IMG/VR virus record: IMGVR_UViG_2698536647_000005
DNA from: a virus
Lineage: Duplodnaviria > Heunggongvirae > Uroviricota > Caudoviricetes
Strand: one strand, 5' to 3'
Length of the DNA: 25,289 nucleotides
In this document: positions 6,138 to 6,533 of the stretch, piece by piece
Numbering within the stretch: the stretch's first letter is position 1
How the letters are laid out: each line of letters opens with the position of its first letter
Made by a program: the position numbers and the translations under genes
Notes under the pieces: model-generated
What the model saw: the letters and a program-made list of their open reading frames with translations, nothing else
Told to the model about the DNA's origin: nothing
Database searches by the model: none

Positions 6138-6335
6138 ATGGGCGCTTTTGATAACCAGGAAATTACGTTACCCGCATGCCCTAAGTGCGGCACTAAGACG
6201 AAGAAGAAAATCGCTTGGCTCAAGTCGAACAAAAGTTTCACTTGTCGATGTGGAGCTACTATCAATGTCAACAGCAGCCAGCTTACTTCCGAAATCAGGA
6301 AGGTTGAGGACAAGCTGAAGAAGCTCTTTAAATAG
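6138..6335 (+). CDS. Small zinc-ribbon protein, about 65 aa, with its own terminator
   Basis: AAGAGGG ribosome-binding site with 6-nt spacing to ATG 6138. CPKCG ... 16 residues ... CRCG zinc-ribbon motif, lysine-rich C-terminus, and a terminator about 28 nt after the stop. Convergent with, and antisense to, the 3' part of the minus-strand ORF 6168-6533. Confidence 0.45.
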   Translation: MGAFDNQEITLPACPKCGTKTKKKIAWLKSNKSFTCRCGATINVNSSQLTSEIRKVEDKLKKLFK

Positions 6336-6533
6336 TTTTTTATCGACTGATATTATTTCGTTATCAGAGGTTGGTTTTTCAGCCTCTGATTTTTTAGTCA
6401 GGATCATTTTTTCTACACATGTGACTACGCATTCCGAACAGATGGCAGGTTCGTCCTTACCACCTTTTGCGACGATCTTTATCGCTCCCAGTTCGGTTGC
6501 TCCGCAAAATGAGCATGTGAATAAATGATTCAT
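6168..6533 (-). CDS. ClpX-type C4 zinc-finger protein, first gene downstream of pL, about 121 aa
   Basis: N-terminus FTCSFCGATELGAIKIV ... AICSECVVTCVEKMI follows the ClpX N-terminal zinc-binding pattern (CSFCGK ... ICDECV ... C). The track ORF starts at a TTG; I place the start at ATG 6531-6533. The C-terminal third is low-complexity, overlaps the plus-strand gene and contains the plus-strand terminator hairpin, so the true 3' end is uncertain. Confidence 0.5.
   Translation of the reverse strand: MNHLFTCSFCGATELGAIKIVAKGGKDEPAICSECVVTCVEKMILTKKSEAEKPTSDNEIISVDKKLFKELLQLVLNLPDFGSKLAAVDIDSSSTSTSETFVRLEPSDFLLRLSAALRACG
6363..6396 (+). terminator. Intrinsic terminator for the 6138-6335 gene
   Basis: Inverted repeat ATCAGAGG / CCTCTGAT followed by TTTTTT. 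Confidence 0.55.

Follow-up and report, generated by a model that had tools for sequence, protein, structure and literature searches.

The question raised by positions 6138-6533 of the window, by which we mean the whole stretch of 25,289 nucleotides (nt) analysed here from the caudovirus record IMGVR_UViG_2698536647_000005, is which of two open reading frames (ORFs) that face each other across the same DNA is a gene. The window is a lambdoid prophage with a close relative in E. coli Nissle 1917 and in 39-42 of 5,426 complete E. coli genomes. A preliminary description made from the letters alone had seen a convergent pair of zinc-finger ORFs, overlapping antisense by about 170 base pairs, just downstream of the leftward promoter pL, and had proposed either that one of them was spurious over the overlap or that the two formed a regulatory pair in the immunity region. 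The geometry is as described, the two sharing 6168-6335 (168 nt). Our answer, to which we give a probability of about 0.72, is that this is a real convergent gene pair in the layout of N and sieB of phage lambda, in which an unannotated cargo gene occupies the sieB slot and a zinc-finger gene in the N position reads on through it. The parts of the pair are:

6138-6335, plus strand: the plus ORF (ATG at 6138, stop at 6333-6335, further in-frame ATG at 6132), predicted to encode a zinc-ribbon protein of 65 amino acids (aa) with CPKCG-18-CRCG and a C-terminal helix, the cargo of a sieB-type slot
6363-6397, plus strand: predicted intrinsic terminator of the plus gene (terminator scan), arms ATCAGAGGTTGG/CAGCCTCTGAT followed by T6
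6533-6168, minus strand: the minus ORF, 121 aa (ATG at 6533, stop at 6170-6168)
6399-6533, minus strand: ClpX-type C4 zinc-finger part of the minus ORF, residues 1-45 (Pfam PF06689, phrog_5259)
6168-6398, minus strand: C-terminal tail of the minus ORF, residues 46-121, running through the plus terminator hairpin and a 27-nt spacer and then antisense to plus codons 65 to 11
6336-6362, minus strand: the 27-nt spacer that separates the plus stop from the hairpin, with the minus-frame peptide E-x-I-[ST]-[VI]-D-K-x

Comparison with relatives identifies the plus ORF as a genuine gene for a 65-aa zinc-ribbon protein, one that RefSeq leaves unannotated. That only the annotated minus ORF is a gene, and the plus ORF a chance antisense frame, would agree with RefSeq/PGAP, which in each of the 39-42 E. 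coli genomes with the locus annotates the minus ORF alone, under the name 'ClpX C4-type zinc finger protein', and with a word-indexed protein search, in which the plus frame found a single cluster, from the same prophage. Both the missing annotation and the single cluster arise because gene callers choose the longer antisense ORF. Against a chance frame, a full phmmer/HMMER scan with the plus protein (1.84 billion representatives, E<=1e-3) returned 331 related clusters, nearly all of 62-76 aa and matched from end to end, which are called elsewhere as independent genes. Two of the cysteines are invariant and two nearly invariant among 45 diverse members of this family, and in about 40 enteric loci, gathered by way of the plus frame or of DNA, the ORF retains its start, its stop and its cysteines. 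The few exceptions are two copies frameshifted by a 1-nt deletion, one C36Y replacement (carried by L030) and one truncated copy. An alignment-based scan of genome contigs gave two loci only. On the independent contigs L033 and L055 a 1-nt deletion near plus codon 10-12 breaks the plus ORF and removes the minus stop; it may mark a natural pseudogene or a sequencing error.

The pattern of substitution points the same way. The two frames overlap in direct codon-antisense register, with plus position 3 opposite minus position 1, and within the overlap the ratio of nonsynonymous to synonymous rates (dN/dS) is 0.09-0.36 in the plus frame against 0.44-4.3 in the minus, being lower in the plus frame in all 17 pairs tested. 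Substitutions at codon positions 1, 2 and 3 number 10/4/23 in plus codons 1-10 and 47/20/74 in plus codons 25-56, with a peak at position 3 in each case (permutation p 0.005 and 5e-5). When the window is compared with a homologue from Thalassotalea, the plus frame is 47% identical (E 3e-20), whereas the minus-frame translations show no similarity (E 1.7), and identity thus reaches the Alteromonadales in the plus frame and not in the minus. We conclude that, as judged from these comparisons, the main protein-level constraint in the overlap is carried by the plus frame. The chance frame, with four retained cysteines, its own ribosome-binding site (RBS), a conserved leader that also precedes other plus-strand cargo genes, and a terminator to account for as well, is in our judgement ruled out by the comparative data (the 331 clusters, dN/dS and the Thalassotalea homologue) about as firmly as such data allow. 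Distant family members are located in early or immunity regions of temperate-phage genomes and often point the opposite way to their neighbours. In a Thalassotalea metagenome-assembled genome (L010, 2459-2785) a 108-aa ORF contains the whole of the zinc-ribbon homologue on its antisense strand, and the ATG of this ORF overlaps the stop of an upstream helix-turn-helix (HTH) gene (ATGA).

The preliminary description credited the plus ORF with a CPKCG...CRCG zinc ribbon, a good RBS and a terminator of its own, and this is what we find: GAGG at 6127-6130 stands 7 nt ahead of the ATG, and past the stop lies a stem of 12 pairs (6363-6390), then T6. The minus ORF has a good RBS as well (AGAGG on the complement, 6539-6543). 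The terminator hairpin does lie inside the minus reading frame, where it encodes minus residues KKSEAEKPTSD, and it is unidirectional, the minus strand being without a U-run. A hairpin at this position is retained in every relative, and L009 and L003 have the same stem, changed on both arms. AlphaFold models the plus protein, at a predicted local distance difference test score (pLDDT) of 82, as a four-strand zinc ribbon with a C-terminal helix. In size and in its CxxC...CxxC ribbon the protein is similar to the small zinc-ribbon families Lar, YnfU and Mu Com, which it matches at E 0.003-0.009, far below the family cut-offs.

The order of genes at the locus is cI, pL, the minus ORF in the position of lambda N, and then the plus ORF converging on it from the opposite strand. 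On the lambda map cI, rexAB, the left operator and promoter (OL/pL), nutL and N lie on one strand, and sieB lies opposite and converges on N. The order and orientation are shared by lambda and P22 and by the window: repressor, pL, first early gene, converging opposite-strand gene and then the rest of the early-left operon. In lambda, N (35438 to 35037, minus) and sieB (34482-35036, plus) abut with no overlap, whereas the window pair overlaps. The upstream sequence is shared too, since the 5' half of a conserved element that precedes the plus ORF consists of 32 nt that recur near-identically upstream of lambda sieB, and in Hafnia phage Pocitis76 it lies ahead of an annotated sieB. The stretch GCCTG(T)CTTTTAACCACATCAGGC(T/G)CGGTGGT aligns in the window, lambda and Pocitis76, and the half that holds the leader and RBS differs. 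From the same architecture and the shared upstream sequence we therefore assign the plus gene to the slot of sieB and the minus gene to that of N. The likeness does not extend to the protein: scans of Pfam, PHROGs and PADLOC gave no SieB or exclusion-family match for the plus ORF, and lambda and P22 sieB encode a membrane protein of roughly 190 aa, whereas the cargo here is a 65-aa soluble zinc ribbon without sequence similarity to it. Here the sieB slot holds a cargo other than SieB. The comparison that had been drawn with exclusion modules beside cI in other lambdoid phages, for a convergent antisense pair in the immunity region, came nearer the truth than a spurious ORF, given the lambda sieB position and the sieB-type upstream sequence.

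The conserved element upstream of the plus ORF is itself portable, and comprises:

6072-6137, plus strand: putative promoter/leader of about 65 nt, kept in all enteric relatives
6079-6084, plus strand: proposed weak -35, TTTAAC, among the most conserved positions of the element
6099-6107, plus strand: proposed extended -10, TGgTATCTT (or TGGTATTCT), also among the most conserved positions

It also holds a CA-rich leader and the GAGG given above as its Shine-Dalgarno sequence, together with a stem GCCTG/CAGGC that has a compensatory variant GCCGGG/CCCGGC, and a palindrome TCTTGGT-N11-ACCAAGA. Scanning viral contigs for the pattern of the element gave at least 120 that contain it, of which 101 are distinct (loci L068-L189), and in each an ATG lies 12-14 nt past CCAA. 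The small ORFs that it precedes fall into more than 20 unrelated cargo families, which include two kinds of zinc ribbon, helical proteins of 59-95 aa, a 105-aa membrane protein, a 146-155-aa family and DUF1883; the last was the sole Pfam match among the slot cargoes, and PADLOC matched none of them. Of 75 loci, 46 have a gene for an S24-type repressor on the other strand, mostly 260-600 nt past the cargo stop. The element is found in phiES15, SfII, mEp460, Rac-SA53 and phages of Klebsiella, Edwardsiella, Providencia and Hafnia, and it is conserved across phages of Escherichia, Klebsiella, Cronobacter, Edwardsiella, Hafnia and Providencia while the cargo changes. From this conservation we infer that it is a promoter. 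E. coli genomes without the zinc-ribbon gene also carry the element; for instance, E. coli MB06232 has a different plus-strand cargo annotated at the same site, and Rac-SA53 has other plus-strand genes (rac10/rac11) there. Such replacement at one site in related phages identifies the zinc-ribbon gene, on present comparisons, as one allele of a hypervariable slot.

Independent cassettes of promoter, gene and terminator in prophages are known as morons, a concept due to Juhala and Hendrix, and the window likewise has a self-contained promoter-like element, a small ORF and an intrinsic terminator belonging to that ORF, which run against the surrounding lytic operon and have alternative contents in relatives. 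The region beside cI is a recognised mosaic hot spot, occupied for example by rexAB or bstA (PMC8585504). That hot spot lies between cI and pL, whereas the window slot comes after the first pL gene, and the window differs from both morons and the hot spot in that the promoter/leader is itself conserved while the cargo changes.

The minus ORF is indeed the first gene after pL, as the ORF list and the promoter scan bear out, and its convincing ClpX-type N-terminus, another claim of the preliminary description, proves to be real. Profile matches identify residues 1-56 as a genuine ClpX-type zinc-finger protein, with the motif CSFCG...CSEC (CxxC-21-CxxC) and C7, C10, C32 and C35 all present. The match to phrog_5259 covers residues 1-56 at E 2.8e-20, that to the NCBIfam ClpX N-terminus has E 1.6e-4, and Pfam zf-C4_ClpX (PF06689) scores E 7.6e-6 and 26.2 bits, just below its cut-off of 27 bits. 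The members of phrog_5259 are ClpX-type zinc-finger proteins from phages, about 70 aa long, and stand-alone homologues of the minus N-terminus are known to us at 66 and 82 aa, with a third of 75 aa in L070, where the gene stands beside a different cargo and overlaps it by only 11 nt. The minus ORF shares CxxC-21-CxxC with the ClpX N-terminal domain and phrog_5259, but it is without the AAA+ module of ClpX, and it has a tail of 65-75 aa that is absent from other family members. As for a role like that of lambda N, the position fits, since this is the first gene after pL and is followed by a terminator-like hairpin at 6002-6044 and then U5. The Arg-rich N-terminus of N-type proteins is absent from the sequence. 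A repeat search of the window showed none of the inverted repeats that paired nut sites (boxA/boxB) would form between the pL leader and the stretch past pR, and we do not retain the minus ORF as an N analogue.

The tail recurs wherever the zinc-ribbon gene occupies the other strand, and is therefore a property of the cargo allele and not of the zinc-finger gene. It is antisense to 55 cargo codons, and its stop TAA is the antisense of the plus Leu11 codon TTA. With other cargo alleles the first pL genes overlap the cargo by 8-276 nt and have tails of varying length. The loci L071, L104, L137, L075 and L068 have first pL genes of the type MSTSANRK...CPKCGC, which run antisense into other cargo alleles for 195-276 nt, their targets being a membrane-protein cargo or an entire 66-aa zinc-ribbon cargo; long read-through on the antisense strand therefore recurs at the slot. 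The 121-aa 'ClpX zinc finger protein' of the databases is partly a read-through product. In the convergent pair as we read it, the pL gene of the minus strand meets no stop with this cargo allele, and its frame continues through the terminator hairpin and antisense to the cargo. The tail would then be a clade-restricted overprinted extension, translated and kept open, within which two short helix-forming segments may be constrained. The suggestion that one ORF is spurious over the overlap was thus right in part: the plus frame is the primary coding frame, it alone is conserved as far as Thalassotalea, and the minus tail is made by the cargo, but both ORFs belong to real genes.

Several observations weigh against this reading. 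The plus protein has no specific family or structure in Pfam, NCBIfam, PHROGs, PADLOC, PDB sequences or a Foldseek search of the PDB, its database matches being limited to generic zinc-ribbon similarity. A consensus promoter scan did not flag the element at 6072-6137, and the sequence upstream of lambda sieB is without the TAT of the proposed -10. The conserved 5' half may therefore do something else, such as form a hairpin in RNA or DNA. The remaining points favour true dual coding, in which the tail (about 65 aa, from the spacer to ...LRACG) would be a functional, portable C-terminal domain of unrelated immediate-early proteins, with both strands under selection. No stop interrupts the minus frame in any of 19 distinct enteric variants, whereas another fairly open antisense frame has 1-3 stops in 14 of the same 19, and on the inferred tree about 4.5 stop-creating synonymous changes would be expected and none is seen. 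The C-terminal 60-65 aa are fused in frame in other phages to about eight unrelated N-termini (the ClpX zinc finger, two AlpA types (HTH), P22_Y8K6, the L009 type, the L032 type, a short leader with its own RBS, and a coiled coil). The minus stop at the Leu11 codon is preserved in every variant, the codon being TTA in the nine that were tabulated; the one change placed there by tree reconstruction, TTA to CTA, keeps the stop (TAA to TAG). The 27-nt spacer varies with the periodicity of minus codons and chiefly at their third positions, substitutions at minus codon positions 3/2/1 numbering 36/13/17 (permutation p 0.0014). Finally, changes that are synonymous in the plus frame and alter the minus occur at 0.15 per unit opportunity in codons 11-24 and 57-66, which coincide with the two predicted helices of the tail, and are about 4-fold commoner (0.52-0.59) in codons 1-10 and 25-56. 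Doubly synonymous changes stand at about 1.1-1.5 in all three regions of the overlap without depletion; because they are as frequent at the ends of the overlap as in its middle, recent recombination is disfavoured as the cause of the low synonymous change at the ends.

The tail is not, on the other hand, conserved beyond the enteric clade, since the minus frame is unalignable in L010 and has stops in L044 and L046. Its dN/dS (0.44-4.3) is that already given, AlphaFold models it at a pLDDT of 53 as a pair of helices with a disordered linker, the ClpX zinc-finger protein also occurs without it, and comparable read-through tails of variable length are found on other cargo alleles. The composition of the plus family also favours open antisense frames: among six distant relatives the direct antisense frame is open in four and another antisense frame in five. 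The open frame is hence, on these counts, partly a by-product of composition, and being 'always open' is weakened as proof of dual coding, although the control frame within the clade partly restores the argument. The counts of substitution events are based on parsimony with few doubly synonymous sites, and recombination could inflate them, and part of the variant sample (L003-8, L065-67) was found through the minus protein. The preliminary description had held that its pair would fall if one frame alone were under purifying selection and the other broken by stops in relatives. Purifying selection is indeed found on the plus frame, and the minus frame has the higher dN/dS yet stays open throughout the enteric clade, stops appearing at a distance only, in L044 and L046. 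Weighing all this, we put a functional tail a little short of an even chance, and dual coding in the full sense stated above somewhat against the odds. A further possibility is that the plus transcript serves chiefly to oppose the pL transcript as a cis-antisense RNA, in the manner of lambda OOP and cII, and that its coding capacity is secondary. The predicted plus transcript (about 6114-6397, roughly 285 nt) is contained entirely in the predicted pL transcript, being short, terminated and fully complementary to the 3' half of the mRNA of the first pL gene, and the sieB/sas and OOP/cII pairs offer precedent (PMC12197685, PMC7067206). We nevertheless consider this unlikely, in view of the clear protein-level selection on the plus frame and the spread of its family in other contexts. 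The same promoter/leader, moreover, drives many unrelated protein-coding cargoes with a strong RBS, and the conserved purpose of the slot is therefore the expression of a protein.

With a convergent pair in the N/sieB layout as the preferred reading, the known behaviour of sieB suggests how the two genes might work together. sieB is an exclusion gene expressed from the prophage (PMC10883804), and sas is a cis-antisense RNA that controls sieB of P22 (PMC12197685, PMC7067206). By this likeness, the cargo gene would be expressed in the lysogen, where pL is repressed, and would face convergent transcription from pL after induction. Either this transcription or its RNA, complementary to the whole of the roughly 285-nt cargo mRNA, should then damp the cargo, the RNA in the way that sas does for P22 sieB. 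It is by sequence and layout that the window is likened to the sieB-esc-sas exclusion module. Antisense overlapping gene pairs have also been reported in E. coli O157:H7 (PMC9927249), where there is likewise a long antisense overlap with both frames open and one partner unannotated. Unlike those pairs, the unannotated partner in the window is the better conserved and older gene, and selection on the second frame is suggestive only.

A broader claim joins two of these strands, and we hold it more tentatively than either form of a working tail: that the overlap would be true two-strand coding, in which some 65 aa, forming two helices with a linker, were overprinted antisense to the zinc-ribbon cargo gene as a portable C-terminal module and are selected on at least 8 N-position proteins, and that the sieB promoter/leader would mark a hypervariable slot, unrecognised until now, in lambdoid phages of enterobacteria, for at least 20 orphan, lysogen-expressed families concerned with phage conflict. 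If the tail module is kept on at least 8 unrelated N-position proteins, then the cargo and the tail of the first gene would travel and function as a unit.

What is at stake in the first place is a conserved gene missed in every RefSeq copy of this prophage, including that of the probiotic strain Nissle 1917. A simple DNA pattern of the promoter/leader finds the sieB position and retrieves more than 20 families of small uncharacterised proteins, which form a candidate list for exclusion, defence or host-modulating functions encoded by prophages. If the minus tail is functional, the locus would be a well-sampled natural case of antisense overprinting in which the order of origin is clear, with the cargo first and the tail later; interest would grow in that event, or if a role in exclusion or defence were shown for the orphan cargoes. 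Primers given in PMC5987069 for a 'pr' gene of Nissle do not match the window, and that paper therefore does not bear on this locus.

The neighbouring genes and flanking elements are as follows:

4887-5804, minus strand: RdgC
5995-6044, minus strand: terminator-like hairpin CTGGCGG...CCGCCAG with U5, tL1-like, about 120 nt past the minus stop
6563-6630, minus strand: conserved pL-leader block, 68 nt, 84-97% identical in ST64B, SfV, SfII, mEp460 and Yersinia, Pectobacterium and Klebsiella phages
6672-6643, minus strand: pL-like sigma-70 promoter TTGCAA-18-TATAGT (promoter scan), overlapping operator-like repeats (OL)
6778-7497, minus strand: cI-type repressor (S24/HTH)
7784-8419, plus strand: cII/YmfL-like gene
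ending at 7824, plus strand: cro-like gene

The repeats that overlap the pL-like promoter are also present at the divergent region between cI and cro: the operator-like sequence ACTTTAAGTAGATAATT occurs at 6652-6668 by pL and again at 7457-7473, 7502-7518 and 7818-7834. The phages that share the pL-leader block have differing first genes. The leader showed no significant RNA structure (z +1.2) and its conserved core is present in the window as a single copy; with neither significant structure nor a second copy, the block was rejected as a put- or nut-like RNA. The hairpin at 5995-6044 folds at -24.3 kcal/mol (z -2.1), and its outer stem and T-run are also found in ST64B. It suggests a short immediate-early transcript from pL and a need for antitermination; we recognised no N-like protein and no nut or put site. 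Rfam gave no match near any gathering score for window 5600-7000, and none in the conserved non-coding stretch at 5844-6060, between rdgC and the cargo slot. This stretch has an inverted repeat (5859-5895 / 5973-6009) and a terminator-like hairpin on the plus strand (5960-5974), and is homologous to sequences in ST64B, phiNP, Flotzy and LLS; a core of 55 nt (5935-5989) is found at about 92-94% identity in 305 of the 5,426 E. coli genomes, including CFT073. A bidirectional hairpin terminator, AAAAAAAACCGGCTTTCGCCGGTTTCTT, lies at the cI 3' end (6726-6796), and Rfam returned only weak sub-threshold matches for it (STnc370, rsmX).

Two E. coli records of about 43.7 kb that are filed as plasmids, NZ_CP081704.1 (43,680 bp) and NZ_CP081794.1 (43,671 bp), carry the locus. 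Each is probably a circular phage genome, which would imply a phage able to excise or replicate. Some relatives have transfer RNA (tRNA) genes or tRNA-like 3' ends immediately ahead of the cargo element (L068 at 2250-2326; also L005, L030 and L036), and the window itself has four clustered tRNA calls at 15328-15636 (Met, one undetermined, Thr and Gly).

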